A stretch of 63,692 nt of DNA, filler included, from Collodictyon triciliatum (GCA_043381765.1; 9 parts of 9 records of this genome joined end to end with filler, not necessarily neighbours in it), one strand, 5' to 3'. Counted from the whole stretch's first letter, positions 1,775-50,400 are shown. The notes: a model not told the origin generated them from the sequence alone. Made by a program: numbers and translations.

Positions 1775-1832
1775 ATCATATATACCGCATTCTTTGAATC
1801 GAATAAAGGGAGGAAAATCATTCACACCACAT
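1775..1832 (+). mobile_element. Micro-insertion copy 1 (TCGAATAAAGG family) with diverged flanking direct repeat
   Basis: Insert 1791-1816 TCTTTGAATCGAATAAAGGGAGGAAA between ATCATATATACCGCAT (1775-1790) and ATCATTCACACCACAT (1817-1832), 12/16 identical. Confidence 0.6.
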
Positions 1833-1903
1833 AAACAATCATACAAAAAAAAAACTCAAATATACAAAACGTTACTAAAATTACATTCTTTCTATTTAAG
1901 AAT

Positions 1904-4900
1904 ATGAAGCAATTTATGCTTTTCCTTGTATTACATGCTTCGAATATCTTAGCCACAGATTTCTTTTTTAGAATGAATCAGAGGTATTCCCCTTACAAGA
2001 TATTTTAAATAGAATATATAAACACCCTAAATTGAATTATAAAATCATGTCTGCCATACAACCAAATAATCTATACAATAGTCCTTCCAAACAGTGGTGT
2101 GGCCGTAAAAGAATTTCCATACTACAGTGAGAATTTTTTGTAAACCATAGTAATCTTCACAAATTCTGTGCATAAAAATATTTTTCCTTTTTAACCTTTT
2201 TTAAAAAAATGTTAATTTGGGAATCTACCTTTACTATTGTGTGCATAAATTTTGCAGACACCAAATACTGGCAGTAGCCCTTATTCCAGCAATGCTATTG
2301 ACAGTATCTCCCATAGTGCATGAACCATTTGATAGGTATTATCTAAATTGCTAATATTATATATACGGATCATGTATGTAATTACGAATAAATACAGGTG
2401 CCAGTACTCAAGAGATGAGCTACTATCCATGAAAATTGAGGATGCTTTTCAAATCCTTCTAACCTTGTTCGATGATACTTGCCCATGGGTCTCTGATAAA
2501 ACCAGTAAGTAAAATTTTTACAAATAAAAAAGTATTATAAATAACGCAATCTTTTTCAAAACAGTATTACTAAAGGAGTAATAGATCGTAATTTTGATTT
2601 AATTAAAATAACTGAAGTTCATCACATTTCTCAGTTATAAAATTAAAATGTTAAACAGGCAAAGAGTTGATTTCAAATCACGATGTAAAGTGGAGAAGCA
2701 GTGAATTAATATCATATCAGTATGAACTTCTTGTCCAATTATACGACTTGTTTAATGGAGATGATTGGTATAACAACTATGGATGGAAGAATAATAGTAT
2801 TCCTATTTGCGAATGGTTTGGAGTAGAGTGCTATAATTATTGTTCAAATGATGATTACATGGTAAAGATATCAAATTTTCCTTCAATAAAAAAGAATTCA
2901 CTCTCACCCTTAGCAAATATTTACGTTTCTCTTCTTTGATAACTTTTGTCACAATTTATTTTTTGATAGGATAACATGTGCCCTTTGATTGGATTATGGA
3001 TGTCAAGCATCAATATATGTGGCAATATCGAAGCAGCATCTCCTATATTCGAACAACTTCCCCTCCTTTCTTCCATAGATTTGAGTTCTAATAGGATTTA
3101 CGGGAACTTGTTGGATTTTAATGTGCCGAATCTCGCTTTCTTGGATTTATTTGGGAATAAAATCACTGGAACTATCCCAAATTTTCGATGGATTCATAAC
3201 ATTAACCATCTGGAGATTGACGGAAATATGTTAGAAGGTACCATTCCTGATTTCTCTGATATTCCGAAAACGACAACCCTGTGGATTGGATCAAGTCAAA
3301 AGATCACAGGTTTTTGTTGTTTCTCATTTTCTCTCCTACATGGTGAACTATAATGCAATTTTAAAACCACTATTACTATTCAAAATAAGTCTAGCCTGTA
3401 TAGAAAATTTTTGAGTAATTCATAAAATACGTAGGAAACCTGATAGATTTCTCAGGTTTGCCGAGTCTTCAGCTACTTGGAATTTACAACAGCGAGGTGT
3501 ACGGTTAGTTTTCTAAATACATACGAGATGAATTTAGTCAGATCATTTCTCGAATTATTTGAAGGAACTCACTCATTTAATAATAAATCAGGAACAATCC
3601 CACAGTTCAATGATATCCCTAAAGTTGAATTTATCTATCTATATAATAACCAAATCACTGGTAAGTACTTTATTTAAGCTTGATATAATTAAATTTTCTA
3701 AATATTTTATACCTAGGGACGGTCCCAGACTTTATTTTCATTCCTAAAGCGAGATTGATATATCTCTACAATAATCGATTAAGTGGTACGTATTCCATTA
3801 AATCCAATTATATTTATTCCTAAGCTAATATATACGCTGTCATCAAAGGAACAATTCCAAATTTTCGTGGCATTCCAGATATACGTTATCTCAGTCTTTA
3901 CAGCAACTATCTGATTGGTAGAATTTTTTTCCTATTTGTTGACTATACTTACCAGTCCTTTTTTCAAATATTTCTTCCAAGATGAATTAAAACAAAAATT
4001 CTCGTATATCCTATCTTTATCAGTGTAATAATTATTTCTGACCAAATATCATAAAACTTGATTTTGGTATGAATAATAATCGAATAAAGGAAAAAAATTG
4101 GTATCAATAAAAAGTTTCATTTGCACTTTTCTTTTTATTAAAGGAAGTATCCCAGATTTCAGCTTTATCCCAAATATTGAAGAGCTAAGTCTCTTTAGTA
4201 ATGAATTGGTTGGTAAGTTGCATATGTTTCAGAATAATCTTGTGTATTGTTATCTTCACTTAACAAAACCAATAGGAACGGTTCCTGATTTTAGCAACAT
4301 TCCGTATCTTTTTGAACTTTACATTTACAGCAACAGACTTACTGGTATGCACTATTTTTATGCTTTGAATCGAATAAAGGAAAAATGCACTATTTTATCA
4401 AAATTTTGTCTCCTTCACTGATTTAATTTACTGCAGGTAATGTACCAGATTTTAGGTCTATTGCGAATGTTGTGAATATTTACATTCACGGAAATCAACT
4501 TACCGGTAATTAAACGCAATTTCGTAGCACTGAATTTTCTCTTTAATTTATTTTTTATTCATATAAATAAATGAATGTATTATACGTCTCATGCAAAATT
4601 TAATATATGATTGTAGTAAATTTTGTGCAACAATATGTCTTTATAGCATCAACTTATTGAGTTGTTTTAGGAACCGTTCCTGACTTCACTCACGTGTTGA
4701 ATGTTGAAAGAATTCTACTCGATGGCAATCAATTGATAGGTGAATTCATATTTCCAGATAGATTTTGCATATAAATACACTCTTATTTGTCCCTTTATTA
4801 ATTTATTTTCTACAGGAACAATTCCGGACTTTCATTGCATATATTATCTTCAATGGATAAATTTGTTTGCCAATCGGTTGAGTGGTTTGTGTAATTTTTC

Positions 4901-7230
4901 CACGAAAACGAGGCATTTTATATTCATTCTTAATTTAAAGAAAAATTATCTTAGGAACGATTCCTTACTTCAGTAAAACCCCAAATATTCAAATCATCAA
5001 TATAGATGGAAATGAACTTAAAGGTGGTTATTATACTCAGTAAATTTCCCAAACCTCCCCCCCCCCCCCCCCCCCCTTTATATTTAATTCAACAGAAAGG
5101 GCCCTTCTGAAGCAAAAGTGTGATGGAAATACAATTTGCTGTCTAATACTTGTCACGTAATAGGAACAATTCCAAATTTCTACAATACAACGAATCTTGA
5201 ATACTTTTCAGTATATGACAATCAAATAGTAGGGACTGTTCCGAATTTCGAAAACTGTCCTCAAATAAAGGACATAGTATTATTTAGAAATAATATAAAT
5301 GGGACCCTGCCTTCTTTGAAATCGACGAGGCTTGCTAAACTAGATTTTAGTGAAAATCAAATCGCAGGGTCGATACCTCAAGATTGGTTTATTCCGTCTA
5401 TCGAATACATAGATTTATCCAGAAACGAACTCAACGGTACTATCCCCAATAATTTTGGAGATTTCATCCAACTAAAGTCACTCACTCTCTCACACAACCA
5501 ATTATATGGAAGTTTACCAGTTAACTTTTGGAATTTACCCTCTCTCATATCCATCGATTTAGTAAATAACATATTTTCTGGAGATATTGGTATTTTTCTT
5601 GTGCCTGCCACTGGAAATTACAAATACAATTACGAAAGTCTATTCGTTGATGATAATAAACTGTACGGGGAGCTTGACTGGAGAATTTTTAATTTTGTGA
5701 GTAATATAAAAACTTTGAGCTTAAAAAACAACAACATCACAAAACTTGGTGAACTCACTGGATTATTGAAGTGGAAGTCTATCGAATTATTTGGAAATCC
5801 CTTGAATGGAAATATTCCTGAATCATTTCGCGGATTTTTGAAGCTTGAATACTTGGGCTTAAATAACACTCTTATGAACCATGGAGTAGCAAACTTTCTC
5901 CCAGATTTTATGAACTATACAACAATTTACAGCTTGGAGTCTGAAACAAAGCATTACTTTTGTCCTTCTATTGAAGCAACGTCAGGTCTTGTTGGAATGA
6001 GTGTTGATTTAAGTCCGAGATACTATGATTATGAATTTTGCAAATGTTTGCCAGGATATTTCGGGTTTAGGAACAACTGTATTCAATGCCCCAGAGAGTG
6101 TCAATGTCTAGATGGACTATCTCTGAATTATTGCCACACTTCCCCAAACACTGTTGAGGTGAAATTCATCATTCCTTGCCCCCGACCAGAATCGTGCACG
6201 TCATCCGTCCCTAAAAAGGCTTCCTCATCGAACATTACATCAGAGTTTACCATACTATGTGAAGAGGGCTATGAAGGGCGCGCATGCTCAAAATGTCTTC
6301 TTGGTTATGGAAGACAAGGGCGATTATGCAGCAAATGTGATGAAGGGATTATATACTCGACTTTGATTTTAGGGTTGATTGGGTTTTTCTTTTTCATCGT
6401 GTATTTGTATTACGCGGAAACCTCAAGCTCTGGTAAGTTGTTTTCCATTCCTTGTCTAAACCCTATCATGTAATTGATTAAATCAAAATGAAATGTAATT
6501 TTTATTTGAATATTTTCATAATCACAGCCGAGCTAAGAATCATTCTGATTCACATGCAAACCTTGTCCGTTATCTCTTCTGGCCTGATTCAGTCGGAAGA
6601 TGCCGAAAAATTCATCGATGTTACTTCATCAATCGGCTCGATTCAACTTCCCAATTTTTCATGTGTTTTTCAAATAAATGATGTTTTTGATTCCCTCATA
6701 TTCAGTTTTGCCAGAATCCCATTATTCACTATTGCTGGTTTGATATTATATCATTATGGACGAGGTCACTCACAAAATAAGGTAATTATTTTTTTTCCTT
6801 TATTCGATTCAAAGAAAAAATAAGGTAATTATATTCTTTATCGAATAAAGGGGAAATGGGAATTATATTCTTTAAGTAGATTGCATATATAAACTGTACC
6901 TAATCTTTCTTGGGATAATAGGCGGTTTTTATCACTCTGAATCTCCTGTTTTTTATATACTACTCTGTTGCAAGAGAACTCTTTGGTGTTTTTGGATGCA
7001 CCATTTATGATTACGGAGAAGGCAATTGGTACATGAACTATGCTCCCTGGGTTCAGTGTAGTCCAATATCCCATGAATATAAGAAATTAATTATTATTTC
7101 TGTCCCAGTTTTTATCTCGTTTTTGGTCGGATTGCCGTGCTTTGTTTTGTGGAAAGTCAAAATCATGTTTGAAAGGCCGGGGTATGAACCGAAAGCTCGA
7201 TACGGTTTTTTGTACTTGCCGTTCAAGGAG
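1904..7230 (+). CDS. Leucine-rich-repeat receptor-like membrane protein (signal peptide, LRR N-cap, about 20+ LRRs, Cys-rich EGF-like region, multi-pass TM domain); 3' partial
   Basis: Phase-consistent GT-AG exon chain from ATG 1904 (MKQFMLFLVLHASNILA). LRRNT-type cap DDWYNNYGWKNNSIPICEWFGVEC (2659-2861), LRR exon 2970-3309, ten 69-nt LRR exons (3435-5023). Exon 5164-6432 has LxxLxLxxNxLxGxIP repeats and CEEGYEGRACSKCLLGY followed by a TM helix. TM exons 6528-6781 and 6922-7230 end RYGFLYLPFKE. The contig ends before a stop codon. Confidence 0.9.
4064..4110 (+). mobile_element. Micro-insertion copy 2, intronic
   Basis: Insert 4077-4097 TAATCGAATAAAGGAAAAAAA between TTGGTATGAATAA (4064-4076) and TTGGTATCAATAA (4098-4110), 12/13 identical. 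Confidence 0.75.
4347..4398 (+). mobile_element. Micro-insertion copy 3, intronic
   Basis: Insert 4362-4384 GCTTTGAATCGAATAAAGGAAAA between ATGCACTATTTTTAT (4347-4361) and ATGCACTATTTTAT (4385-4398), differing by one T indel. Confidence 0.8.
6774..6832 (-). mobile_element. Micro-insertion copy 4; its direct repeat duplicates a splice donor
   Basis: Insert 6790-6816 reads TTCTTTGAATCGAATAAAGGAAAAAAA on the minus strand, between exact 16-bp repeats AAAATAAGGTAATTAT (6774-6789, 6817-6832). Confidence 0.85.
6827..6874 (+). mobile_element. Micro-insertion copy 5, abutting copy 4 in the opposite orientation
   Basis: Insert 6841-6860 TCGAATAAAGGGGAAATGGG between exact 14-bp repeats AATTATATTCTTTA (6827-6840, 6861-6874). 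Confidence 0.8.
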
Positions 7231-7401
7231 GTAATTACCATATATGTACCGATTTACTCTTGTTACTCGAATGGGCAGATATTGGATTTACTCCCACTCT
7301 TTTGTTTGTTTGTTTTTTGTTTGTTTGTTTTTTGTTTGTTTGTTTTTTGTTTGTTTGTTTTTTGTTTGTTTGTTTTTTGTTTGTTTGTTTTTTGTTTGTT
7401 T

Positions 7402-7501
7402 NNNNNNNNNNNNNNNNNNNNNNNNNNNNNNNNNNNNNNNNNNNNTTAATTAATTAANNNNNNNNNNNNNNNNNNNNNNNNNNNNNNNNNNNNNNNNNNN
7501 N
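7402..7501. other. Artificial contig-joining spacer
   Basis: 44 N + TTAATTAATTAA (stops in all six frames) + 44 N. Confidence 0.98.

Positions 7502-7573
<72 letters not shown>
7502..7573. repeat. (GA)n microsatellite at contig end
   Basis: Direct reading. Confidence 0.95.
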
Positions 7574-7577
<4 letters not shown>

Positions 7578-7755
7578 ACGCCACCTCGGGTTGTATGAAG
7601 CAGCCTCGAATATCTTATCGTGTATGGATGAAATAATTCCAGGAAGATACCGGTAACTTATGCAGTCTTGGAAATAAGATAGAAAAGGCCATTTTATTAT
7701 CACTCCCTTTGTTATGTAGAATTTTTGTATCCTTCTACCAACCTTGTGGCGTTCC

Positions 7756-10700
7756 TTAATCATAATCTATACCAGTCAGTTCCGAGTGGCTACGCAGGCG
7801 AGAAAATGCTTCTTTGTCACCTAGTGAAGCTGCCTTTTGATAAAATTCTATCGCTGTGTCTACACTCTTTCGAACACCGAATCCTTTCATATGGCAGTCC
7901 CCAAGAGAGGTAAGTGCCGGGACGTAGCCCGAGTTTGCAGCTATCGTAAAGCTCACAAATGCCTGCTCTGGATTAAGATATTTTGGAAAACTAGCATAAA
8001 TTAACCCTAGATTCCACCAAGCACACCCCGTTCCGAAAGATGCAAGGGCATGTATGCGGTTGACTGCGTCACTAACACCATGTTTCACGGAGCTACGATA
8101 CATCTCACATGCTTTTTCGACATTCATCGGCACACCAAATCCTTTTTCAAGATATTCTCCGTACAGATACTCTGACTCTCCGTGAGCTAGAGAAGCTGAT
8201 TTGAATAGCCACTTGTGTGATTCTTTTGGATCGACCCTCGTACCGATTCCTTCTTTGTAGCATTTGGCCAACAAGTTCTGGGTCCTAATTGACCCGTTAG
8301 CGAAATCATCCAGATCCCCGATCGACTGCAGTGAATTTGATTCGATGAGCTCTGCCATATCTTGAATACCTCTCTTGCAGTTTCTTCGGGCTGAACGATA
8401 AATTGCATCAAAAGCCGGTTTACGATCACATTTGGCATGGGTAATGAGGGCTTCTCTGGCTTTGGTGAATCCTTGCTGAGCCAACCTTGATGTGATATGA
8501 AATGCCTCTGGTATGCCTTTGATACACAGACTTTTCAGCTCAGCCAAGGAAGGTTCATATCCCCTTTGAGCTGACAGCTCATACCATCTACAGCCTTCTT
8601 CATAGTTCAGGACGCCATGCCTTTCCTTGGAGTAGTAATCTCCAAGGGCCTTCTGAACAAACAACAAGCCTTTAAACCCAATTTCACGAATCCTATCCAA
8701 CGCTCTAGAATATGCATTATCTTTCAAAATCCTAAACAATGACTCTAAACACTCTCTACTTCCCATCTGACCTCCCAAAGAATAAAGTTCAACTGATTCT
8801 TCCAAGTTCTTCTCATCTTTCAGGCCTTCATATAGCTTACCTAGTTCATAAAGAGCTGGTACATATTTCATCTTTGCAGCATTCTTTAACAAATCTGTCC
8901 GGCTGTCCAATATTTTTTGGTCTTTTGAATACTCCACCAAATTTGCAGCTTCGAACTGCATGCAAGGCACACTCAGTGTCAAAAAAGGCTCAATAAGACT
9001 CAACGAGCTTTTTCCGATTTGCAAGCTGCATAAAGTTCTACTCCGGTCGCTTACAATTCGATAAGTGGACCACACATCAAAGTATTCAATAGCATAGGCA
9101 AAGCATTCTATGGCTTCATTGAATCTCCCTAGTGATAGGCAATACTCACCATAAAAGGATACACATGTAATCCCCCATATTGATTTTACAACTCTGTTAC
9201 GAACATATAAATCTTTAAGGAGCTTATCAAATTCCTTATCAAAGGGAATCTTATGTCTCAGAATCCTGTCAATCTCTTGAACTACTTCGAACTCATAATT
9301 TCCATGGGCCAGTTGGGGGTGTATAGTGAAAAGCATTCGCATGAGCAAGTGGCAACCATAATGAAGTGGTTGTAATTGAATACAAGAGCGAACAATTTTG
9401 AAAGACAAGATGTACTTTCCGATGCTAAAGCACTCAAGCGCTCTCTTGAAAGTGATAAATATATCCCTCTTCAAAATTTCAGGTAAATTAGATAGCATTA
9501 AGCCATTTCTGTCATATTGTTGATAAGTGTTGACGAATTTTCGACGGGAAGTAGTATTTTCGATAAAATAGGTTGAATCTGGGGGAAATACATCAGATGA
9601 ATATCCATCATATGAGCTCTGCTGAGAACATTCCGGTGAAAATGAGCTCGAGCCATCAATCACCTCGGTTGTATTAAGCTCTGATTTGTAAACACCAATA
9701 GAATCAAAATACGATGCAATGTCCTTCAACGACGAATGATCTTGAGCCGCTAGCTTGGCCAAATCATTCCTATCTATTAGTTCCCCATTCAAAAAAGCGC
9801 GTCTTTTAACTTCCCAAATAACTTCACTCTGTTCCAAGAATTCTTTCTGTTGGTCATATATTTGAGATAACTTTAAAAGGCCATATCCGTATTCCAGAAT
9901 GCATAGCTTTTCCATCAAAGGCAAACACTCTCTGTCTCCTAGGATATATCCCATGTAATATAAATCAACAGCTCTGCTGGTACTTTGCTCCACGCAATGA
10001 CCTTCATAATAGCATAAACCTAGGTAACGGAAGCTGCTTGGATCAGATTTACTATTCAACCTCTCCAACCTTGTAATAGCTTCGACAATACCAGACTTTG
10101 CAGCCTTAAAATAATACTCGCCGGCTTTCTGGGGTTGAGAATACGTTGAACGGTATTCCGTATCCAATATCTCTGCAAACAAAAAAATCGCTTGACTGAT
10201 GCCGTAACCCGCTAATACTTCAAGTTGCTGGACTGCAGGTTCGTACTTTTCCAAAGCGGCCTTGTAATAGCACTGTGCTGCATCGTAAAAGTTTTGTTCT
10301 ACACAATGACCAAGCTCAAAACACACTCCTTTGTAATACATAGCTGATGGAACTCCGGCATTGGCATGATGTTCTATCTTTGAATATCCCTCTTGATTAT
10401 TCATAGATGCACATCGATGATATTTTTCTACGGCGATGTTCAAGTCTAATGAGACGATTACACCAGTTTCATAAAGCATTCCCATAGAAATTATGGCCTT
10501 AATGTGACCTTTTTCCTCCATTTTGACGAGTTTTGTCAGTGCTTCTTTATGGCCTTGTTTCGCAGCAGTTAAATACCAATCGATTGCTGTATACCAGTCT
10601 TGCTTAACACAGAGCCCATTTGTATAAGCATCACCTATGTACACAATTGCAGATGCAAAGCCACCTTGAGCTAATTCATGGATTGCATCAAATGACGGTT

Positions 10701-13700
10701 TGTATTTCATCTGCATCGATCTAAGGAAGTAGCTTAATGCAGTTTCTCTGTTTGGTGCGACAGACCATCCGTTCAGGTAGCATAATCCCATGTGGTGATG
10801 CGCCTTTTGAGGATAAATGGAGCACAGACGCGTCAGTCCTGCAATACCACTCCTGATTCCAAGCTTACATGCATTGGAGAAATGATGTGTGGCTTTTTCG
10901 TAGTCTATCGGTAATCCGTTACCTTTGGAATACATCGACCCTAGAAGTTCATGAGATAAACCACACGATTGATTCGATGCTTTTATTGCCCAGTCAAATA
11001 CTTTGTCCCATCGGAAAGATTCCCCAACTTTTACTAATGAGTAAGCCACAGCTACCTGATACTGGGATATTGGCGAACCTTGTTCTGCCAACCCTTCTAA
11101 CTTAGATAGTGCAAAAGGAGAAAGCTGCTCATCTACATATATGACCTTCATGTACCAAAATAAAGCCTTTTCTTCATTTTGAGATGTTCCAATGCCATTC
11201 TCGAAGCATATAGCAAGCTCATACATCGATTTGGCATCGCCAATAATGGCACCCTTTTCGAAGCTCTGAAAAGCAAGGGAAGTGTTTTCACCCACTGACA
11301 AACCTTTGTAGTAACACAATCCAAGCATATACCATGCATAGGCATAGCCCATTTGTGCGATGTCTTCTAATTTTTTAAAAGCGAGCGGGAAGTCATTTTT
11401 GCAAATCTGAAACAAAACATCTGCTATGGATTTTATCGAGACTTCAACAGTTGGGTAATACAGACTGTAACAAGCAGAAATATATAGACCCCAGGGATTT
11501 TTCTCCGATGAAAGTTGCTTCGTTTCCTCTTTGGCTTCATCGCATCCTTCCATGGTAGCCTGATACAGTAATTCCATGGATTTATCCAAGTCAATGTCAA
11601 TATTCCCTACCCCCAAAGCATGCACCTGGCTTAGCAAATATTTTGCATATGCATTTTGTTTTTCAGTGGCATGATGTTGAATTCGATCATATGCCTCTTT
11701 ATGTCCCATTTCAAAAGCACAGTAGTAATAATCCAACGCCAGCCGAAAAATCTTTTGGTGTACTATACCGAGTTCGTACAATCTGCCCATACAAAAAAGC
11801 GATCGTGCATCTTTCTCTAAGCAATATTTCTGGATGAAATCCAAAGAAAGCTCTTCACCTAACAAAGCAGACTCTGTAAAATACTGAATGGCTTTTTCTC
11901 GATCTTTTTTATGTATTAAGCCCCTTTCATATAGACGTCCGATGAAATGAATAGCGAGCTTTTCTTTTTTTTCTGACAGTCTCTCAAGCTCTTGCATAGA
12001 TATGATATCATTCATTTCAGTCGCATTGTAATAGCATCGCACAGCCTCTCGGATATCAACACCAGTCTGATATCCATTTTCGTGACAGTATCCTAGGTGG
12101 CGCATTGCAAAGGTATTTGTTTTGGAAAGTTTTTCTAGCTCTCTGAAACCACTGAGAACTCTGTTCTGTGCTGAGCGAAAATACCATAAAATGTAATTCT
12201 CTGGAGGTGAATTGTATTGCTCATGGGTTTGCATGTAGCGGCCCATGTAATACTGAGCCAACCCATTGTTGCTTTCAGCAATTGGTTTGATGTATTCAAA
12301 TGCATCATGGTTTCCATTCAGTAGGCAGAAGCTGATATGGTCCAACGCTTCATTCTTGTTGACTGGGCATCCAAGTCCTTCCCACATCATTTTGCCTAGA
12401 GCAAATTCTGTATGCACATTTTTATTTTTCGACGATTTTATCAGATTGAATGCCTTCGAATAATCAGCCGGAACATAGTTTCCATTGAAATAAATTAGAC
12501 CTAGCTCAGACATTGCAATATCATCTTTTTTCTCGGATGAGGATGTGAATAAATCAAAAGCTTGTTTCATATCCCTTTCCACAAAAATACCATCCTTGTA
12601 TAAAAATGCCAATTTACGCTGTCCTGCAGCATTTCCGGCCGAAGAAGCCTGCTTGTAATTCTCAAAAGCTCGTTTTAGATCTTTCGAAATTTTTTCACCC
12701 TTTTCATAAATCTCGCCAAGAGCCAAGAAGGCCTTTACATGAGACTGTGCCGCTGCTAGGTTGTAGTATATGATAGCTAGGTGAATATCTGATACAAGAC
12801 CAAAAATTCCATGTTCGTGATAATGTCCATACAAATATTGAGATTTGGCATATCCTGTATGTGAAGAGTACTTTATGAGTGATGTGAATTTTTTTGGATC
12901 TTGGTCCTCTATGTGTTCATTCAAGCATATCTTTCCAAGTTTATATTGAGCGCTGGGGTGACCGCTGTATGCTGCTCTCTTCAGATAAAAAACGGCTTTT
13001 TCATTGTTCTTTCTACCCCGAAGCTTGATGTAGTACGCTCCAAGGAGGAACGATGCTTCTATTCCTCCTTTGTCACTGGCTTTCGTCCACGAGACTACAC
13101 ATCTGTCCGCTTCAGTGTGATGGACATCCTTTCTTAGAGCCAGTCCATGGTATGTCATGGGAAATACATCCTCACCTTCCCCAATCTTGGCTAAGTAGTG
13201 TGCATCAATATGATCTCCTTTGAGGATATTCCAGTATTTCAAAAACAAAAGGATAAGTTTTTGGGTTTCTCTTTTCATCGTTTTAGAAGTAAAATGGTAG
13301 GAAAAACTCTTGAGGGATTCTTGAATCATCAATTTATGTTCGTCAGAGTATTTTTGTGGGCATCTGTTTAAATAAGTTTTTAATGTCTGACAAGTATCCT
13401 TGAAAGATGGCTTTGGTAAAAAGCTCGGGAATTCTCTGTAAACAAAATGCCGTAATACGCAGACGGTAAATTCGTTTGTACAATCTTCACAGAATCGGCA
13501 AAAAAGGTCGAAAAGCCTATCGGATTTGCGAGCGATATTTGCACATAATATTTCAAATGCAACTTGTGTATCCTTTTCTTCATTTCGAACAGATATTGAG
13601 TCGTAAAAGTTCTCTGCTTGAGCCTGAAAATCTTTCGAATAATCATCCAATATAATTGAGTTTCTCTTGGTAGCAATATCAACAATCTGAGGACCATTAT

Positions 13701-14832
13701 AATCTTTTGAATTGATTTCGTATATCAAAATGGGATATCTTGTTATTTTTGGATGTGCCAATAGATCTTCCTTTGACATAAAGTCCACATAATCTATGTG
13801 TCTGAAACGAGGAAAGCATCCACGAATCGAGGCTAAGCTAGCCTGGTCTTTGTAAGTTCTAATGATGCACAAGGCGTCGTAGATATTGCCGATCGATGCT
13901 CTGCAATCTGGATTGCTTTTTAGGCACGCTCTTATAACCGTAATGATTGAAATGGGAATACTGGGCGATATGATGTGAGATTGAGGGGCTTTGGATTGCT
14001 TGGTTATTTGGTCATAGCTCAATCCCTCGTAGGGCACGTAGCCACTAAATAGTGCCAAGGTCACGAGACCAAAAGAGTAAATATCTTCCGATTCGTCAAC
14101 GTATCCGCTCTTAATTGCCTCAGGAGAGCTCCAATTGATGCAACGTGCTGCGACACTGGCCGAGAAGGTGTTATCTCTATGTGATTCACCCGTTGAAACA
14201 CTTTTGTCATCTTCGGGGAGATGTCCAAGCCTTGCTAAGTCCTTAAAGCTGGTAGACAAAGAGTTCGCATCAAGTGGTATTTGCGCAGTTGATGTGTGAG
14301 GCACTTGGCGTTCGTCAGACATGTTTGTGATACTCAAACCATTGGCCACACTTGGTTGATAGAAGACTCCATAATTCGTAAGCTTTATGCCTCTGTCAGA
14401 GACAAGAATGTTTGATGGGTTCAAGTTACCATGGCAAATGTGTGGACTCCATCCATGCAGAGCCTGTAGGCCCAAGCATAATTGAAAGGTGAACTCAACG
14501 AGTCTTTCGTGTGGGGGCGACCTTCCAACCCTGATTTCCTGGGCTATAAAGTCTTCCAGCAATCGCCCTTCTACAGCCTCTGTCACCATAAAAAGATCGG
14601 TTCCATCCACCTTGCAAAGCCCAACATACTCTGTGACGTTGGGATGGCGCACGCCGAAGTATGGCACAAGTGTTGCTACCATGTCTCTCTCGACAGCTGG
14701 GTTGTGAGCAGGATTGTCAGACCCACTGCCACACATTGGTTTCAAAAAAACTGGGCGAGATTCATAGGTTGCTGCGTAGGAAGCGCCGTGTGGAGAGCCA
14801 TCAAGGGCCAGGGGATTATCGACTTTGAGCAT
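7756..14832 (-). CDS. Large intronless protein: N-terminal kinase-like (pseudokinase) domain plus a long Sel1-like repeat array
   Basis: Single 7-kb ORF; first ATG at 14832, and a possible acceptor TTTTAG just upstream means it may be a terminal exon. Kinase motifs VFLK, HGNLNPSNILV, KLTNYG, WSSPE, DIYSFG. Many Sel1 units, e.g. AFLALGEIYEKGEKISKDLKRAFENYKQASSAGN and ALTSLGDCHMKGFGVRKSVDTAIEFYQKAASLG. Confidence 0.92.
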   Translation of the reverse strand: MLKVDNPLALDGSPHGASYAATYESRPVFLKPMCGSGSDNPAHNPAVERDMVATLVPYFGVRHPNVTEYVGLCKVDGTDLFMVTEAVEGRLLEDFIAQEIRVGRSPPHERLVEFTFQLCLGLQALHGWSPHICHGNLNPSNILVSDRGIKLTNYGVFYQPSVANGLSITNMSDERQVPHTSTAQIPLDANSLSTSFKDLARLGHLPEDDKSVSTGESHRDNTFSASVAARCINWSSPEAIKSGYVDESEDIYSFGLVTLALFSGYVPYEGLSYDQITKQSKAPQSHIISPSIPISIITVIRACLKSNPDCRASIGNIYDALCIIRTYKDQASLASIRGCFPRFRHIDYVDFMSKEDLLAHPKITRYPILIYEINSKDYNGPQIVDIATKRNSIILDDYSKDFQAQAENFYDSISVRNEEKDTQVAFEILCANIARKSDRLFDLFCRFCEDCTNEFTVCVLRHFVYREFPSFLPKPSFKDTCQTLKTYLNRCPQKYSDEHKLMIQESLKSFSYHFTSKTMKRETQKLILLFLKYWNILKGDHIDAHYLAKIGEGEDVFPMTYHGLALRKDVHHTEADRCVVSWTKASDKGGIEASFLLGAYYIKLRGRKNNEKAVFYLKRAAYSGHPSAQYKLGKICLNEHIEDQDPKKFTSLIKYSSHTGYAKSQYLYGHYHEHGIFGLVSDIHLAIIYYNLAAAQSHVKAFLALGEIYEKGEKISKDLKRAFENYKQASSAGNAAGQRKLAFLYKDGIFVERDMKQAFDLFTSSSEKKDDIAMSELGLIYFNGNYVPADYSKAFNLIKSSKNKNVHTEFALGKMMWEGLGCPVNKNEALDHISFCLLNGNHDAFEYIKPIAESNNGLAQYYMGRYMQTHEQYNSPPENYILWYFRSAQNRVLSGFRELEKLSKTNTFAMRHLGYCHENGYQTGVDIREAVRCYYNATEMNDIISMQELERLSEKKEKLAIHFIGRLYERGLIHKKDREKAIQYFTESALLGEELSLDFIQKYCLEKDARSLFCMGRLYELGIVHQKIFRLALDYYYCAFEMGHKEAYDRIQHHATEKQNAYAKYLLSQVHALGVGNIDIDLDKSMELLYQATMEGCDEAKEETKQLSSEKNPWGLYISACYSLYYPTVEVSIKSIADVLFQICKNDFPLAFKKLEDIAQMGYAYAWYMLGLCYYKGLSVGENTSLAFQSFEKGAIIGDAKSMYELAICFENGIGTSQNEEKALFWYMKVIYVDEQLSPFALSKLEGLAEQGSPISQYQVAVAYSLVKVGESFRWDKVFDWAIKASNQSCGLSHELLGSMYSKGNGLPIDYEKATHHFSNACKLGIRSGIAGLTRLCSIYPQKAHHHMGLCYLNGWSVAPNRETALSYFLRSMQMKYKPSFDAIHELAQGGFASAIVYIGDAYTNGLCVKQDWYTAIDWYLTAAKQGHKEALTKLVKMEEKGHIKAIISMGMLYETGVIVSLDLNIAVEKYHRCASMNNQEGYSKIEHHANAGVPSAMYYKGVCFELGHCVEQNFYDAAQCYYKAALEKYEPAVQQLEVLAGYGISQAIFLFAEILDTEYRSTYSQPQKAGEYYFKAAKSGIVEAITRLERLNSKSDPSSFRYLGLCYYEGHCVEQSTSRAVDLYYMGYILGDRECLPLMEKLCILEYGYGLLKLSQIYDQQKEFLEQSEVIWEVKRRAFLNGELIDRNDLAKLAAQDHSSLKDIASYFDSIGVYKSELNTTEVIDGSSSFSPECSQQSSYDGYSSDVFPPDSTYFIENTTSRRKFVNTYQQYDRNGLMLSNLPEILKRDIFITFKRALECFSIGKYILSFKIVRSCIQLQPLHYGCHLLMRMLFTIHPQLAHGNYEFEVVQEIDRILRHKIPFDKEFDKLLKDLYVRNRVVKSIWGITCVSFYGEYCLSLGRFNEAIECFAYAIEYFDVWSTYRIVSDRSRTLCSLQIGKSSLSLIEPFLTLSVPCMQFEAANLVEYSKDQKILDSRTDLLKNAAKMKYVPALYELGKLYEGLKDEKNLEESVELYSLGGQMGSRECLESLFRILKDNAYSRALDRIREIGFKGLLFVQKALGDYYSKERHGVLNYEEGCRWYELSAQRGYEPSLAELKSLCIKGIPEAFHITSRLAQQGFTKAREALITHAKCDRKPAFDAIYRSARRNCKRGIQDMAELIESNSLQSIGDLDDFANGSIRTQNLLAKCYKEGIGTRVDPKESHKWLFKSASLAHGESEYLYGEYLEKGFGVPMNVEKACEMYRSSVKHGVSDAVNRIHALASFGTGCAWWNLGLIYASFPKYLNPEQAFVSFTIAANSGYVPALTSLGDCHMKGFGVRKSVDTAIEFYQKAASLGDKEAFSRLRSHSELTGIDYD

Positions 14833-14897
14833 GATCAAAAACCTAAAAGTGTTTTTTTTTTTTTTTTTTTTTTTTTTCCCCTTTTTTTTTTTTTTTT

Positions 14898-14997
14898 NNN
14901 NNNNNNNNNNNNNNNNNNNNNNNNNNNNNNNNNNNNNNNNNTTAATTAATTAANNNNNNNNNNNNNNNNNNNNNNNNNNNNNNNNNNNNNNNNNNNN
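14898..14997. other. Artificial contig-joining spacer
   Basis: 44 N + TTAATTAATTAA + 44 N. Confidence 0.98.
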
Positions 14998-15904: not shown

Positions 15905-15914
15905 AGAAAAGAGA

Positions 15915-16008
<94 letters not shown>

Positions 16009-16557: not shown

Positions 16558-16652
<95 letters not shown>

Positions 16653-24614: not shown

Positions 24615-24714
24615 NNNNNNNNNNNNNNNNNNNNNNNNNNNNNNNNNNNNNNNNNNNNTTAATTAATTAANNNNNNNNNNNNNNNNNNNNNNNNNNNNNN
24701 NNNNNNNNNNNNNN
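24615..24714. other. Artificial contig-joining spacer
   Basis: 44 N + TTAATTAATTAA + 44 N. Confidence 0.98.
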
Positions 24715-32106: not shown

Positions 32107-32206
32107 NNNNNNNNNNNNNNNNNNNNNNNNNNNNNNNNNNNNNNNNNNNNTTAATTAATTAANNNNNNNNNNNNNNNNNNNNNNNNNNNNNNNNNNNNNN
32201 NNNNNN
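32107..32206. other. Artificial contig-joining spacer
   Basis: 44 N + TTAATTAATTAA + 44 N, preceded by (CATA)n at 32008-32106. Confidence 0.98.
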
Positions 32207-38921: not shown

Positions 38922-39458
38922 ATGGACAAAGTTATATGCCCGCACTGCATGAAACAGCTTTCTTCCAAGCGTAACCGCCGATTGCATCTGAACGTCTGCA
39001 AACGCAACCCGCAGCGCCACCACATCACTTTCCTATGTCCAACATGCCCAACCTGGTGTGGCTTTTCGGAGCAAGCCCGCACTGAGCATCTCAAGTCCAA
39101 GCTGCATCGAGCATCGACTGCACTCTCTGCTAAACAGTCTGCAGCACCTTTCGCCTCTCCTCTAGCACCACCACCCCTTACTCGTGCAGATTTCTCTGCA
39201 TCTCTCTCAGTTTCTGTCTCTGCATCAGCAACGGCATCGGCATCAGCATCAGCATCGGCATCTACATCGGCACCTGAGTACATCCCCCGCCCATTCAATT
39301 ACCTCGATATTGTCCTCGCCCCACCCCTGCCCTTAGAAGATGGAGTTGATGATAATGAGTATGCCTCTACTCCCATATCAAAGCCTTCCTCAAATGTGGC
39401 ACACTGGCTGCTCACTCTATCCAACGCGGCCACATCCGCCACAAACGCGCTCCCATAG
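38922..39458 (+). CDS. Intronless small protein with two N-terminal zinc fingers and a low-complexity tail
   Basis: CPHCMKQLSSKRNRRLHLNVC (C2HC) and CPTCPTWCGFSEQARTEHLKSKLH (C2H2-like), then a Ser/Ala/Pro-rich region. Confidence 0.6.
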   Translation: MDKVICPHCMKQLSSKRNRRLHLNVCKRNPQRHHITFLCPTCPTWCGFSEQARTEHLKSKLHRASTALSAKQSAAPFASPLAPPPLTRADFSASLSVSVSASATASASASASASTSAPEYIPRPFNYLDIVLAPPLPLEDGVDDNEYASTPISKPSSNVAHWLLTLSNAATSATNALP

Positions 39459-39597
39459 CCATCAACCATTTGAATTATATTCTTCACTTTTCCTATTTTT
39501 CCTTCTCTCTTTTCTTCTCTCTTTTCTTCTCTCTTTTCTTCTCTCTTTTCTTCTCTCTTTTCTTCTCTCTTTTCTTCTCTCTTTTCTTCTCTCTTTT

Positions 39598-39697
39598 NNN
39601 NNNNNNNNNNNNNNNNNNNNNNNNNNNNNNNNNNNNNNNNNTTAATTAATTAANNNNNNNNNNNNNNNNNNNNNNNNNNNNNNNNNNNNNNNNNNNN
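39598..39697. other. Artificial contig-joining spacer
   Basis: 44 N + TTAATTAATTAA + 44 N, followed by (TTTTA)n. Confidence 0.98.
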
Positions 39698-39815
39698 TTA
39701 TTTTATTTTATTTTATTTTATTTTATTTTATTTTATTTTATTTTATTTTATTTTATTTTATTTTATTTTATTTTATTTTATTTTATTTTATTTTTACATC
39801 GAATAGTATATATAC

Positions 39816-42455
39816 CTCCCGAGAGGGCATGTGATTGGTTTCTCAAACTCGAACAGAGCCCACTGCAGATGCCCTCCAGTCTCTGATCCGGTCAGCTCAT
39901 CTTGGTAAAGATAATCTCTGTCCCATCGGAAAGCAACATCTACTAATATATTACTTCGTCACTCTATCAATAACCGAATGGGCAATTACATCTCAAGGAT
40001 AAATAAAGATACAAATAAGATAGCAATTTAGTTAATTATTTTTTAAAAAGAAAAGAAAAAGAAGATAAATTGATTGCAAAAAATAAATAAAAGGAAACTA
40101 TGGGAATCAGTTTAGAGTTGTGCTGTTCAGCTCCAACAAAACGATATATCACTAAGCTCTTCTTATCAAATGCAGACCGCTTGCGGATGACGCACTCTGA
40201 GGCGGAAGGATAAAAAATGTGGCTGATGCAAGTGTTGTCGTGTGGCCAACAGTAACTAGTGTGAATAAATCAATAGTAGAAAGAAATGAGAAAAATGAAA
40301 GAGAAAATGAATTAAGAAAAAAAAAAAAGAAGCAAAAATCATGGATATCATTAAGTACTATGAAACTTGGCTTTTGTCCCCACGGTCCCTTTAAAATACC
40401 GGATCTTCTTCAGTGATCTGGCGTGCATAAATGAAATAGTTAAATTGAATTTAAATTGAGATGAAACAAATTTACATGATTGTTATTGCGAAGGTGGGTG
40501 TAATGATATGTGTGTGTATCGTACACAATTGCAGATGAAAGCGTCGGGACACTTCCAGGAGTACAAGCAAGTCCACGTTCGATTAATTCAGCATCCAATT
40601 GAGTGACACAGATACCAAGACGGTCACCCTATTCAACTTGATTAGAATCATTTTTCATTTATTCATAATGCGAATATAATACTCTTTTTTTTTATTTTAA
40701 TACTGTTATGCATTCGTTGTCGCAGTGAGTATTTAAATACCATCCATTATTCTAACATTATTGAAATACCGCTCCAAGTCGAGATATAGATATAATGGAG
40801 AGAAAAAAAGTCACCTGGGTACCAAGTTGGAGAGGCTTCTTAAACATTTGCATCGACTTTACCTTCTTTTGTAATTTCAGCTCAGGGAATTCAATTGTCT
40901 AGGATTGATTGCAGTATGGTGTCTTGATTAATTTTTTACATAATTTTTCACAATTCGTCTCCTTCTAATCTCATATATCATATATATCAGCTGGAAGTCA
41001 TATTTCTTTCTTCGTTTTTTTCTTTTTCATAGTGATTAAGATCAATCTCATGAATGTATGCTTCTTTTTCTTTTAGAAAAACAATACCTGATTTACTTGA
41101 ACGGACCCAGACAAAACAGTTCCTGTCAATACCGTCCCCTGCCCTCGGATGGCGAAACAATGGTCGATGGAAAAGAGAAACGGCCCATCAGGACTTCTTC
41201 GAGGAAGCTATATAAAATATACAATAAGTTATGATATAAAAAAAAAAAAGGGTGGGGCACGAATATCAAATTTTACATCGGGTTTGTGTACTTTTTCAAT
41301 TGGGGATGAAATTTTTTTGTGCCTAATGAAATTACCAAGTATAGCTTATATAGCTACTAGTATCATGCTGAAAGCTATGTTTCATATTAAATTCGTATAC
41401 AATACTTCCATAAATTAATGTCGTGCCTTTTTTTTTTCTTCTTTTGCGGGTGATTTTGTGTTAATTTAATTTTATCTTTATTTTATGATCATGAAACCCT
41501 TCCTTCATCTTAATCGAATAAAGGAGAAAAAAATTATGTTCATACGAGCACATGTGTGTGCGAATTTGTTCTTGTAAAGACTATTAACTGACCTTCACAA
41601 AGGACTTGAACAAGTCGAAAAAATCGAGAAGGCCGGTGGGCTGACCAGAAGGACTTTATAGATATTATTGTGTGAAGCAATTGATATAGTATGTGGATAG
41701 TGGCATATTTCAAGGCATATTGATGGAGGCAAGAAAAAGGGAGTATCTTACTCTGCCCCTGGACAAGCAGATACAGCTACCATCGGAACATCACCAAACT
41801 TTGTTGCTTGAAAGGTTTTTTTGAGTCTCATTTTCATCTACACGTATGATTCACCTCATGAATTGATATATTTGCATCCGAAAAAAAACAGCATTATTGA
41901 AAAGAAAATTTTGATTGGGAATAGAAGCATATATATATGTATGTCTGTTTTTATCTCTTCGTTTATTCTATTCAAAGAATGTATGTTGTATGAGACTAAG
42001 ATTTGATATTTTAACATTACAGATGTAAATGCGTAAAGATATGGACTAGTCATGGCGTGTCATACGTGCAGAAAAAAAATATTGGTTTGTATGTTTTTAG
42101 GGGTAGTGACATATAGAAGATAAGAAAAACTTTATCAATAGATTTTTCTCTTTCCTCCACCGGCAGCAAGTCGATTTTGTTAATTACAACAATCAATTCG
42201 TTCGTCAAAATCTCTCCAACAATTAAACCCTGGATTATTGTTTCAAAAAAAAATTAAATACATCGACCTCGTTCGCTCTTATTCAGCTCAAATGAGGTGG
42301 TGGTGTATTTTTCATACATCACAAGTAATAAATTCACTTGCAAAAGGGCTTTGTAGATGTAACGTTTAAAAGGGGACTACATACCTCGGCTGTTTGGGTC
42401 TGTATTCCCTTTTGAACGTCTACAACCAAAATCATCATATCAATGATTTGTGCAC
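39816..42455 (-). CDS. EEFSEC: Selenocysteine-specific translation elongation factor (eEFSec/SelB), internal exons; both ends missing
   Basis: Ten small exons absent from the ORF track splice to GAQIIDMMILVVDVQKGIQTQTAE|GLIVGEILTNELIVVINKIDLLP...|MKMRLKKTFQATKFGDVPMVAVSACPG|...|LPRRSPDGPFLFSIDHCFAIRGQGTVLTGTVLSG|...KKVKSMQMF...|GDRLGICVTQLDAELIERG|...KIRYFKG..TKAKFHI|TVGH...|DYLYQDEL...QWALFEFEKPITCP. These are the diagnostic eukaryotic eEFSec motifs. Confidence 0.93.
41483..41543 (+). mobile_element. Micro-insertion copy 6 in an eEFSec intron (longest apparent 5' extension)
   Basis: ATCGAATAAAGG at 41513-41524 followed by AGAAAAAAA. Candidate repeats TTATGATCAT (41483-41492) and TTATGTTCAT (41534-41543), 9/10 identical. 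Confidence 0.55.
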
Positions 42456-43009
42456 CTATCAGTAAAAAAAAAAAAGTAATAAGAATTTACGTCAATCATC
42501 AATCAAATCATTTAACATATTACAACCTTAAACGAAGGGCCTGTAGACATATGTATGTACAGTGACTAAGATCGGATAAGTTCACTTTTGAAACTCTGNN
42601 NNNNNNNNNNNNNNNNNNNNNNNNNNNNNNNNNNNNNNNNNNNNNNNNNNNNNNNNNNNNNNNNNNNNNNNNNNNNNNNNNNNNNNNNNNNNNNNNNNNN
42701 NNNNNNNNNNNNNNNNNNNNNNNNNNNNNNNNNNNNNNNNNNNNNNNNNNNNNNNNNNNNNNNNNNNNNNNNNNNNNNNNNNNNNNNNNNNNNNNNNNNN
42801 NNNNNNNNNNNNNNNNNNNNNNNNNNNNNNNNNNNNNNNNNNNNNNNNNNNNNNNNNNNNNNNNNNNNNNNNNNNNNNNNNNNNNNNNNNNNNNNNNNNN
42901 NNNNNNNNNNNNNNNNNNNNNNNNNNNNNNNNNNNNNNNNNNNNNNNNNNNNNTGAAAGCTTTAAATTGATTTATTTTAAGCAAAACATAATACGGCATC
43001 TCCTTTTCT

Positions 43010-47088: not shown

Positions 47089-47188
47089 NNNNNNNNNNNN
47101 NNNNNNNNNNNNNNNNNNNNNNNNNNNNNNNNTTAATTAATTAANNNNNNNNNNNNNNNNNNNNNNNNNNNNNNNNNNNNNNNNNNNN
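47089..47188. other. Artificial contig-joining spacer
   Basis: 44 N + TTAATTAATTAA + 44 N, preceded by (GAAAA)n at 46991-47088. Confidence 0.98.
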
Positions 47189-47240
<52 letters not shown>

Positions 47241-47466
47241 AAAAAACAAAAAAACAAAAAACAAAAAAACAAAAAAACAAAAAAAAGACAACAAAACAAC
47301 AAAACAACAAAACAACAAAAAATCAAAAAATAACAAAAAACAACAACAAAAAACAACAAAAAAACAACAAAAAAACAACAAAAAACAACAAAAAAAAAAC
47401 AATTTAAAACCCCGCTGTAGCACTAGACTTCCAGCAAAAGAGAGATTCGAGGCCCGCTTGAGTTCC

Positions 47467-50400
47467 ATGGGAATCCCAAAAGTATTTTCATTTTTATGAT
47501 CACCTAAATATTCTCTTTCATAATTACATTATGAACATTTATCGGAAGCCCGTACTCAGTATGATAAAAATAAATACTTATATATGAATTAATAAGCGCA
47601 CTACCAATTATATTTGTTGAAATGATAACCACCATTAGTTCTTCCGCTGGTTATCACAGCGCTACCCGAATGCTGTTCACGATGCTGTACCATCAAAACT
47701 ACCACAATATGGTCCGCATATGTCCATTCTTTCACTCACTCATGCCGATTAGTTATATATTTTTCTTTTTAAGAAAACAACTAAATTTGGGTACATTTTT
47801 TCCTAGATAATCTGTATCTGGATATGAATGGCATTATTCATAAATGCACCCACCCCGAAGACTTACCAGAAGGTGCAGTTATAACCGAGGAAGACATGTT
47901 CAGAGGAATTTTTGAATACATAGACTACCTCGTCGATCTCATCAAGCCTAAAAAACTGATCTACATGGCCATCGATGGTATATCTCAAACACTACCGACT
48001 TTTCACAATTGCAATTAGTTAAATTATAGAGCATTAGCTGAAAAACATATCCAAAGCCCACGATGAATTAATAATCAATTAATAATGAACTAAAATGAAC
48101 TTTTAGGCAGTGCCCCTCGTTCAAAGATGAATCAACAACGTTCCCGTCGGTTCCGTTCGGCCCAAGAAGCTATGGAGAAGGAAAGAAGGTTTCACTCAAA
48201 GCATATTCTTCGCGTCTCCCAAGTAGTCAGTTTATGTTTGTTACTGATAATTACACCATCATTAATAGCGACCCACCAAAGGAAGGCGACGAGAATCCTA
48301 AAAGCGTTTTTGATAGCAACTGTATCACCCCTGGGACTGAGTTTATGGACAAGCTGACTGGACTAATTGAATATTATATCCAATCTAAAGTGTCCAATGA
48401 CAAATCTTGGATGTCCTTGAGAGTTATATTCTCATCTCACCAGGTATAATCGTTCATCAAATTTGACTATATTAAGCGTGCTTGGATTCGCACCAGGGAT
48501 TTATCATCGCCTCATTTGCTACATATATCTAAAATCAAATTTGAAACAAATAGGTGCCTGGTGAAGGGGAGCATAAAATTATGGACTTTATCCGACAAGA
48601 GAGACTTAATGAAAATTATAACCCATCTGCATGTCATTGTTTCTACGGGGGAGATGCTGACCTCATAATGTTGGGGCTTGTCACACATGAATATAATTTC
48701 TCTATCCTAAGAGAAACAGCGGACTACAAGAAAAAGTCCAAATCTAAAAAGGTAGATAATCGTTGATTTATTTCCACTATTTCGCTTTTATTTTTACTTT
48801 TGAATAAGACATATAGCTGTAATCATTCAATTTGTCACTGATTTTCCATGAATCTAAAAGTCCTGAACTTATACTCTACCAACCCAGCCCGCCATGGCTA
48901 CTTCAAGTTCCCCTGAAAAGAAATTCCAAATGGTGTTTATTTCCATCCTGCGTGACTATTTAGATTTAGACATCGGGCGAAAAATTGATGGATTCCAATA
49001 TGAAATTGATAGAGTGATTGATGACATTGTCTTGTCCTGTATATTAATCGGGAATGATTTTCTGCCCAATCTACCGGGATTTGACATCGCAGACAATACT
49101 CTTGATCATTTATTTGATATCTATCCCAAATTTCTATCAGAAGAAAAAAGATATCTCCATAAATATGGAGAAATTGATTTACCTGTATTTAGGAAATTTC
49201 TAAAGGTACAGGGCAAACAATTTTTTTCTATTTGAACAGCAGCCGCAAATTAAAATACGTTACTCGAGATGACAGTTCTATTTATAATCAAAAGGACTTA
49301 TTTTACCACTTTTTTGATTATATAAGCATCTCCTTATCGTCGAAACGAAAGCATATGGATCATCTAAAGGTCCTCATCACAAGGGTGAAATAGTAAGTTT
49401 AATTTAGACTCGATAAATAACATCTAAATACTTATTCATATTCAATCATTTAAGGCAAATGACGAAGAAGAAGAAGAAGAAGAAGGTGAAAATGGAATGT
49501 CTGCTTTCTTTTCAGATGGCCGAGAAGGAACTATCGAATACTTGAAATACGAAGAGACAACAAAGCAACCTAGGTAATTATGAATTTCAATAACCTCCTC
49601 CTTTTACACGAATGTATTAGACATCTAACAACTGAATAAGTCCAAACTCTTCTCCCTCTCATAATCACCCAGATGCCTAAAGACAGACAAATTTTTGTCA
49701 TTAACAAAAACAAAAACAAAAAACAAAAAACAAAAAACAAAAAACAAAAACAAAAAGCAAAAAAAAAAAAAAAAAAAAAAACAGAAAAAAATACAAATAA
49801 AAAGCCAAAATTTTGAATGCATACAGGGCCTGCGGTTTCAAAAGGACTTACTATGAAGCCAAGTTCTTTGATAAGAAACCTATGAGGGCTACATTTGTCT
49901 CAGAAATAAGTCAGCATTACATGAGAGGGCTATACTGGACAATCAACTACTATTATCATGGTGTTATCTCCTGGGATTGGTACTTTCCGTACCATTACGC
50001 ACCCTTTTTATCTGGTAATTGCGTTACTAGTTTTACTTTTCCTTTTTTTTTATTTTACAAAAATTCCTTTATACCCATATTTTCTTTATGTATGAGACGC
50101 TAGTCCGTTAAGAAAATTTTGCATTCGATAGATGTTGCTGAAGTGGAGGATGTATCCTTTAACTTTGAAATGGGGGCTCCTTTTCTACCTTACCAGGTTA
50201 AATAAAATTTCACGTACTTGTATAGTTAAGTTTTCCTTTATTCGATTCAAAGTTACTTGTATAGTTAAGTTAATTCCTTTCATTTTTATTCAAATTTTAC
50301 TAATTCCTTCTTCTTTTTTTTTTCTTTTTTCGTATCCTCTCGACACAGCAACTGCTATCAGTCCTGCCACCATATAGCGCTAAATTTCTCCCTGAGGCGT

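Follow-up and report, generated by a model that had tools for sequence, protein, structure and literature searches.

We analyzed a 63,692-base window of DNA from Collodictyon triciliatum (GCA_043381765.1), made up of nine joined scaffolds (c1 to c9), and found a family of nine very short insertions that share one 18-nt sequence, CTTTGAATCGAATAAAGG, most of them lying between direct repeats of the surrounding DNA. Judged from its match to a metagenome contig, this 18-mer appears to be the last 18 nt of the 3′ untranslated region (UTR) of an L1-like long interspersed nuclear element (LINE), just upstream of the poly(A), and we consider it probable that the window copies are extreme 5′-truncated products of target-primed reverse transcription (TPRT) of this LINE tail.

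The 18-mer occurs exactly at 1792-1809 and 4363-4380 on the plus strand and at 6797-6814 and 50235-50252 on the minus strand, where shuffled sequences led us to expect 0.00 occurrences, and the 12-nt 3′ core of the 18-mer is also exact at 4079, 6840, and 41513. These seven exact copies of the 18-mer or the core compare with 0.62 expected with one mismatch permitted. All seven positions agree with those in a first-pass annotation of this DNA, which had placed them on three contigs. Two diverged copies, at 41960-41977 (minus strand, two mismatches) and 50845-50862 (minus strand, three mismatches), bring the total to nine, spread in both orientations over three of the nine scaffolds (c1, c6, and c7). 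Across the window, the 18-mer was matched four times without a mismatch, once with two, twice with three, four times with four, and nine times with five mismatches, while a second-order Markov model predicted 0.01, 0.2, 1.24, and 9.11 matches for two to five mismatches; two of the four-mismatch matches are the short copies E and C listed below. This spectrum points to nine copies, of which seven have exact cores, and gives no sign of a reservoir of old ones. The suggestion in the first-pass annotation that the family has been active over a long period is thus weak, since seven of nine cores are exact and five-mismatch matches occur at a chance count.

When the scaffolds were compared with themselves by BLAST, four of the five hits were the motif and the fifth was a LINE tail, such that the motif is the sole interspersed repeat in the window besides that tail. 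At about one copy per 7 kb, it is the commonest interspersed repeat of this 61-kb sample. A literature search with the 12-mer core and related strings found no papers. Taken as a whole, the observation made in the first-pass annotation is real and in part confirmed. The nine copies, designated A to I, are as follows.

1792-1817, plus strand: copy F, full 18-mer core (1792-1809) and purine tail GAGGAAAA; no target-site duplication (TSD) found.
4064-4110, plus strand: copy E, insert TAATCGAATAAAGGAAAAAAA (4077-4097) between TSDs TTGGTATGAATAA (4064-4076) and TTGGTATCAATAA (4098-4110).
4347-4398, plus strand: copy A, insert of G, the 18-mer, and AAAA (4362-4384) between TSDs at 4347-4361 and 4385-4398.
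6774-6832, minus strand: copy B, 27-nt insert (6790-6816) between copies of the TSD AAAATAAGGTAATTAT (6774-6789 and 6817-6832; 16/16).
6827-6874, plus strand: copy C, 20-nt insert TCGAATAAAGGGGAAATGGG (6841-6860) between copies of the TSD AATTATATTCTTTA (6827-6840 and 6861-6874; 14/14).
41507-41533, plus strand: copy G, 12-nt core (41513-41524) and tail AGAAAAAAA; no duplication found.
41937-41989, minus strand: copy H, newly added, core at 41960-41977 with two mismatches and tail AAGAGATAAAA; duplication ACAACATACAT / ACAGACATACAT.
50215-50271, minus strand: copy D, 21-nt insert (50233-50253) between copies of the TSD TACTTGTATAGTTAAGTT (50215-50232 and 50254-50271; 18/18).
50845-50862, minus strand: copy I, newly added and doubtful, CTTTGTATCGAATAAAAA, three mismatches, no duplication.

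Read in element orientation, each copy consists of 0-4 variable bases, the core, and a short purine tail. Copies F, A, B, D, H, and I contain all 18 nt of the core; in copies E, C, and G it begins with (A)ATCG or TCG. All nine copies end with ...GAATAAAGG, or a diverged form of it, followed by an A/G-rich tail of 2-11 nt. The tails read AAAA (A), AAAAAAA (B and E), GGAAATGGG (C), AA (D), GAGGAAAA (F), AGAAAAAAA (G), and AAGAGATAAAA (H); that of copy I cannot be delimited. Whole inserts between clear duplications measure 20-27 nt, and the LINE-derived part is ~18-22 nt in six of the nine copies and ~11-13 nt in the other three. The fixed 3′ side with its A/purine tail and the variable 5′ side described in the first-pass annotation are therefore borne out, as is the non-coding location, which holds for all nine copies.

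For four copies (A to D), the exon borders of the host intron could be read. Copy A lies at +3 to +17 of a 92-nt phase-1 intron (4345-4436) that was ~55 nt long prior to insertion. The duplication of copy B covers the end of an exon and its 5′ splice site (-8 to +8), with the result that the splice site is now present twice, and copies B and C share one intron (6782-6921) that is now 140 nt long and was ~63 nt before both insertions. Copy D is antisense at +19 to +36 of an intron in a gene for an XRN-like exonuclease, and copy E is positioned deep inside a longer intron-like gap (~226 nt) between exons of a leucine-rich repeat (LRR) protein gene. The introns are so short that the copies would be expected to lie this near to 5′ splice sites in any case. 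Separately, an imperfect 29-nt tandem duplication (1731-1786, 82% matches) is found directly upstream of copy F, which itself lacks a TSD.

The duplications are specific to each locus and vary between 11 and 18 bp; they were found in six of the nine copies, with F, G, and I having none. They are identical in D (18/18), B (16/16), and C (14/14), differ in A by one T-run indel (15 versus 14 bp), carry one mismatch over 13 bp in E, and differ by one indel in H (11 versus 12 bp, the exact part scoring 8). We scored flanking repeats against control positions and obtained scores of at least 11 for five of the nine copies compared with 61 of 3000 AT-rich controls (2.0%). For copies F, G, and I, no repeat scoring at least 8 adjoined the insert, and none scoring at least 9 was present within 120 nt upstream. 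The earlier statement that every copy is flanked by a repeat consequently stands for five of the seven copies to which it referred (A to E), whereas the repeats given as "diverged 16 bp" for the copy at 1792 and as "10 bp" for that at 41513 are not confirmed.

A scan for all exact direct repeats of at least 11 bp with a spacer of 8-70 bp, whose output rows were judged by eye, returned seven rows outside simple-repeat arrays. The motif is the spacer in four of these (4347, 6774, 6827, and 50215); the remaining rows are an 11-mer (48456), a purine-rich 14-mer (16514), and a 13-mer that belongs to a coding repeat (24099). Searches of the window for insert-free ("empty") tandem duplications, for larger TSD-flanked elements, and for TSD-flanked short inserts besides the motif found none. 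The proposed T|A at the start of the TSD was present in four of the five clear duplications, but the boundary beside an A tail is ambiguous by construction: because a duplication abutting an A tail always extends over a leading A, the T|A rule is partly an artefact.

Outside the window, contigs of three metagenome runs matched scaffold c1 near-perfectly over 151-338 nt, indicating that the organism or a close relative is present in those metagenomes. Copy E with both of its flanks is spanned in two independent metagenome assemblies, and the site is occupied in both. At 4097, where the A tail of copy E meets its right duplication, one metagenome contig has an additional T, a length polymorphism of an occupied site. 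At least seven other metagenome records match only from 6784/6789 to 6814-6821, that is, the tail, the core, and a few As, and the longer of these motif-limited records then pass into unrelated sequence, the pattern expected of additional short copies at other places. No empty-site alleles were found among the contigs of four metagenome runs, a search in which copy E was occupied in two runs, copy A had no depth around it, and copies B and C had only motif-limited matches.

Exact matches to the 18-mer numbered 35 in the metagenome collection and 20 in prokaryote genomes, with one more in viral contigs. These matches are single in each case and approximate the number reckoned by chance for an 18-mer in collections this large; at least 10 As follow the motif in one of the 35 metagenome matches and in none of the 21 prokaryote or viral ones. 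Since 596 Gb of prokaryote genomes held no motif beyond chance-level matches, the motif is no adapter, and with copies also present in independent assemblies, an adapter or assembly artefact was ruled out. Seven of the matching records (L004, L014, L020, L036, L041, L045, and L054) share one conserved bacterial coding stretch (flanks tgcagg.aa.aa ... tcgattgcc); those with names are Bacteroidetes-type metagenome-assembled genomes, mostly Crocinitomicaceae, and are unrelated to the eukaryotic element.

The one match with an A10 tail, a 1,157-bp metagenome contig (L008), is the 3′ end of a non-LTR (long terminal repeat) retrotransposon. Its open reading frame (ORF) carries the Pfam domain zf-RVT (PF13966; E 1.5e-7, 32.4 bits, cutoff 27.5), which marks the C-terminus of LINE ORF2, and a second frame runs on to a stop codon. 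Past this stop follow a 75-nt GC-rich 3′ UTR, an A, the exact 18-mer, A10, and an AT-rich flank. In the same UTR (130-170, minus strand), 26 nt upstream of the terminal motif, there is a diverged motif-like stretch, CTTTGTATGGCATAA, that matches the start of the 18-mer at 12 of 15 positions and whose GT variant also occurs in window copy I.

Among 1.84 billion representatives searched, 14 relatives of the L008 ORF were found, and a fragment 98% identical to it indicates that the LINE family is multi-copy. Four relatives are full-length (1,226-1,275 aa) and ~30% identical to the L008 ORF; all four have Exo_endo_phos and RVT_1 domains, and three have zf-RVT below the cutoff. Because L008 covers only the C-terminus of ORF2, the apurinic/apyrimidinic-type (APE) endonuclease and the reverse transcriptase (RT) were read in these ~30%-identical relatives, one of which matched human LINE-1 ORF2p at 3.4e-57 and R2 at ~1e-23. 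A search of viral contigs with the LINE protein found no relatives.

The variable 11-18 bp duplications, the fixed A-tailed 3′ end, the variable 5′ end, the occurrence in both orientations, and the dispersed sites together support an RT-based, TPRT-like process that pasted the same tail into staggered breaks. The copies thereby display features of TPRT by an APE-type LINE, namely variable TSDs, a constant A-tailed 3′ end, and identity to a LINE 3′ terminus, that of L008. The anatomy of the copies and the identity between the motif and the LINE 3′ end are read directly; the enzyme, its nick preference, and the reason for the early stop we infer. A LINE endonuclease would nick AT-rich DNA, and the resulting T-ending 3′-OH would prime on the A tail of the LINE RNA. 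Synthesis of cDNA would reach merely ~12-22 nt into the 3′ UTR, after which the short cDNA would be joined to the far side of the staggered break, and fill-in of the stagger would give rise to the 11-18 bp duplication. Among the sources entertained in the first-pass annotation, the best fit is abortive TPRT of a parent LINE that had not been seen, given that the 18-mer with poly(A) is the terminus of the L008 LINE. Nothing here requires a "micro-retroposon" or a "dedicated repair template".

Several observations weigh against abortive TPRT in this sample of nine copies. Random truncation does not predict clustered 5′ ends, yet the LINE-derived lengths fall into two classes (~18-22 and ~11-13 nt), with none at 14-17 nt and none above 22 nt, and no TSD-flanked inserts with fewer than 11 nt of LINE sequence were seen in the window. 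No copy extends into the L008-type UTR, with at most one further matching base (copy D), whereas a second LINE family left ordinary fragments (~64 and ~750 nt) in the same window. Three of the nine copies lack duplications, two of these having perfect cores, and the tails are only 2-11 nt long and contain G even beside perfect duplications. T|A at the TSD start is weak evidence of a nick preference, as it is confounded by the A-tail ambiguity. The link between the motif and the LINE comes from one metagenome contig, L008, which may derive from another organism than the window, and the second motif-like stretch in its UTR makes a more complex history of the tail possible. A structural barrier in the L008 3′ UTR, which could have stopped the RT, was not supported (z +0.57; z -0.92 for the LINE tail on c8). 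The first-pass annotation had held that finding the motif as the 3′ end of an ordinary LINE with a normal truncation-length distribution would reduce the copies to routine truncated ones. L008 supplies such a 3′ end, so by this measure no new element class is needed, but the truncation lengths are unusual, all being at most ~22 nt and clustered. Overall, the interpretation in that annotation is partly supported.

The second LINE family is represented by two pieces.

57830-58585, minus strand: 5′-truncated, degenerate L1-like LINE fragment, with an A-rich tail of its own and an ORF2 C-terminus that contains a CCHC/zf-RVT-like motif.
60793-60856, plus strand: 5′-truncated copy (~64 nt) of the 3′ UTR of the same family, ~80% identical to 57820-57881 and 3 kb from the fragment.

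The larger fragment has stops and frameshifts and is 52% and 36% identical at the protein level to two frames of L008. No micro-copies of this family's tail were found in the window, and an alignment of its 3′ UTR with that of L008 revealed no convincing homology.

The tiny size of all nine copies, the two classes of 5′ ends, the short tails, and the failure to find an RNA barrier leave some room for a discrete template. The copies would then be complete retro-copies of an abundant ~18-22-nt oligoadenylated RNA mobilized in trans by the LINE machinery, a scenario that we regard as improbable. This RNA might be either a fragment cleaved from the 3′ end of the LINE transcript or a dedicated tail-mimic, and the sharp 5′ boundary would be the 5′ end of the RNA rather than an RT stop. 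The 5′ ends do fall at the first C (± 0-4 nt) in six of the nine copies, no copy is longer and none shorter than 11 nt was detected, the A tails are very short, metagenome contigs matching other copies stop at the same boundary, and 18-22 nt lies within the size range of small RNAs. However, three copies begin ~6 nt further in, and the bases just 5′ of the core vary (G, TT, A, CATT), making the boundary inexact; only nine copies are available, and the motif already forms the natural 3′ end of the L008 LINE, so that no separate template is needed. That the copies are retro-copies of a discrete ~18-22-nt RNA, be it a host-sliced LINE 3′ fragment or a minimal tail-only LINE parasite, is accordingly unlikely in our estimation. 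If it were true, the copies would be the shortest retroposed unit known and a genomic record of RNA cleavage, and in this lineage they would contribute in quantitatively important measure to the growth of introns and the duplication of splice sites.

It is very doubtful that the motif is not LINE-derived at all, with L008 being a chimera or coincidence (a tag insertion or template switch at a LINE 3′ end) and the tag being written by another RT or by an RNA-templated break-repair route. The motif is tied to a LINE by one contig only, no TSD was seen around it in L008, and three of the nine window copies are without TSDs, the outcome to be expected if insertion at breaks occurred independently of an endonuclease. 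Yet the GC-rich LINE sequence of L008 stops exactly at the motif, with the sole poly(A) and then AT-rich flank following it in the layout of a native terminus; variable TSDs with an A tail are the standard LINE signature, and related LINEs occur in the window. A DNA-level element or event, whether a tiny palindromic miniature inverted-repeat transposable element (MITE), a transposon footprint, polymerase-theta-type filler, chance, or an assembly artefact, is largely refuted and scarcely credible. Although a 5-bp stem closing a 7-nt loop can be drawn in the core and repair of staggered breaks can duplicate flanks, the stability of this hairpin is negligible at -0.1 to -0.3 kcal/mol and no better than that of shuffles; an RNA hairpin in the core (-0.1 to -2.2 kcal/mol; z -0.5 to +0.45) was likewise rejected as an explanation. 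TSDs that vary between 11 and 18 bp, together with the lack of terminal inverted repeats, argue against a DNA transposon or MITE. Local templated repair is unlike the insertion of identical filler at unlinked loci, and a polymerase-theta-type insertion was rejected given the same filler at nine sites on three scaffolds and in other assemblies; chance or artefact is countered by the chance-level occurrence in prokaryotes and the independent assemblies described above.

These insertions can be compared with several known systems. Typical L1 copies average hundreds of bases with a broad length distribution. L1-type TPRT insertions and the window copies have in common TSDs of variable length, AT-rich targets, a 5′ end that varies, and a constant 3′ end bearing poly(A) and an AATAAA-containing tail, and L1 shares with the relatives of the parent LINE an APE endonuclease, an RT, and a C-terminal Cys/His domain, human L1 ORF2p being the best match. 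In contrast with L1, the window copies keep only ~11-22 nt, have ends at two positions, and carry A tails of 2-11 nt despite perfect duplications. Stringent pairs of LINEs and short interspersed nuclear elements (SINEs) involve non-autonomous retroposons that borrow the LINE 3′ tail, the SINEs being ~70-500 bp long with an internal RNA polymerase III promoter or a small-RNA-derived head. The window copies resemble them in being short, LINE-tail-identical sequences spreading with LINE-type duplications, but they are too short for such a promoter or head, and there is no sign that they themselves act as sources of new copies. At 18-22 nt, they are ~5-fold below the shortest SINE cited in a report on Platy-1, which is ~100 bp long and is there called the shortest primate SINE (PMC4864456). 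A SINE was also rejected on the basis of total insert length (20-27 nt), of a scan of the window that found no tRNA, and of an Rfam scan of the whole window that matched no family.

L1 template-switch products and chimeras such as U6/L1, as described in a recent preprint (bioRxiv 10.1101/2025.02.02.635956), can likewise contain very short L1 3′ segments that result from early exit of the RT, but the window tail is joined straight to target DNA and not to a second RNA copy. Penelope-like elements (PMC8557442) resemble the window copies in their strong 5′ truncation and in short "tail" extensions of 30-40 bp where insertions end; they differ in having pseudo-LTR tandems and a GIY-YIG endonuclease, whereas the parent LINE here has zf-RVT and its relatives are L1-like and have an APE endonuclease.

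Insertions of 20-27 nt are probably missed by standard repeat annotation. In introns with readable borders, 37-43 nt were gained per event and lengths rose from ~55-63 nt to 92-140 nt, with one event duplicating a 5′ splice site. Should the rest of the genome follow this pattern, abortive LINE integration would be contributing indels and intron growth in this protist while staying hidden. The tight length classes of ~12 and ~18-20 nt would serve as a natural read-out of the points at which an L1-like RT leaves its template.

The nine scaffolds are joined by N44-TTAATTAATTAA-N44 separators, c1 spanning 1-7401 and c9 62169-63692. They are ~7.4 kb each, except for one of 9.6 kb and the last, which is cut off. 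Nearly all scaffold ends lie within a simple repeat (microsatellites or homopolymers), indicating that the assembly breaks at simple repeats. The DNA is AT-rich with intron-rich eukaryotic genes, a style that resembles that described for the Physarum genome (PMC4758236), although this is a resemblance only. The separators and the remaining gene features are listed below; the XRN-like exonuclease gene that hosts copy D is described above.

7402-7501, 14898-14997, 24615-24714, 32107-32206, 39598-39697, 47089-47188, 54580-54679, and 62069-62168: separators.
3168-5303, plus strand: LRR protein gene with 72-nt exons, each encoding one G-x-[IV]-P-x-F...N-x-L-x-G repeat.
7756-14847, minus strand: gene for a 2,363-aa kinase with Sel1 repeats, a single unbroken ORF.

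The introns of the LRR gene are phase-1 and split at G|GT, and the gaps between its exons are ~53-89 nt; two wider gaps (223 and 162 nt) may conceal decayed exons. The 2,363-aa ORF encodes a protein kinase domain together with a very long array of Sel1 repeats (Pfam Sel1, 299 bits) and is without introns, although the rest of the sample is intron-rich.

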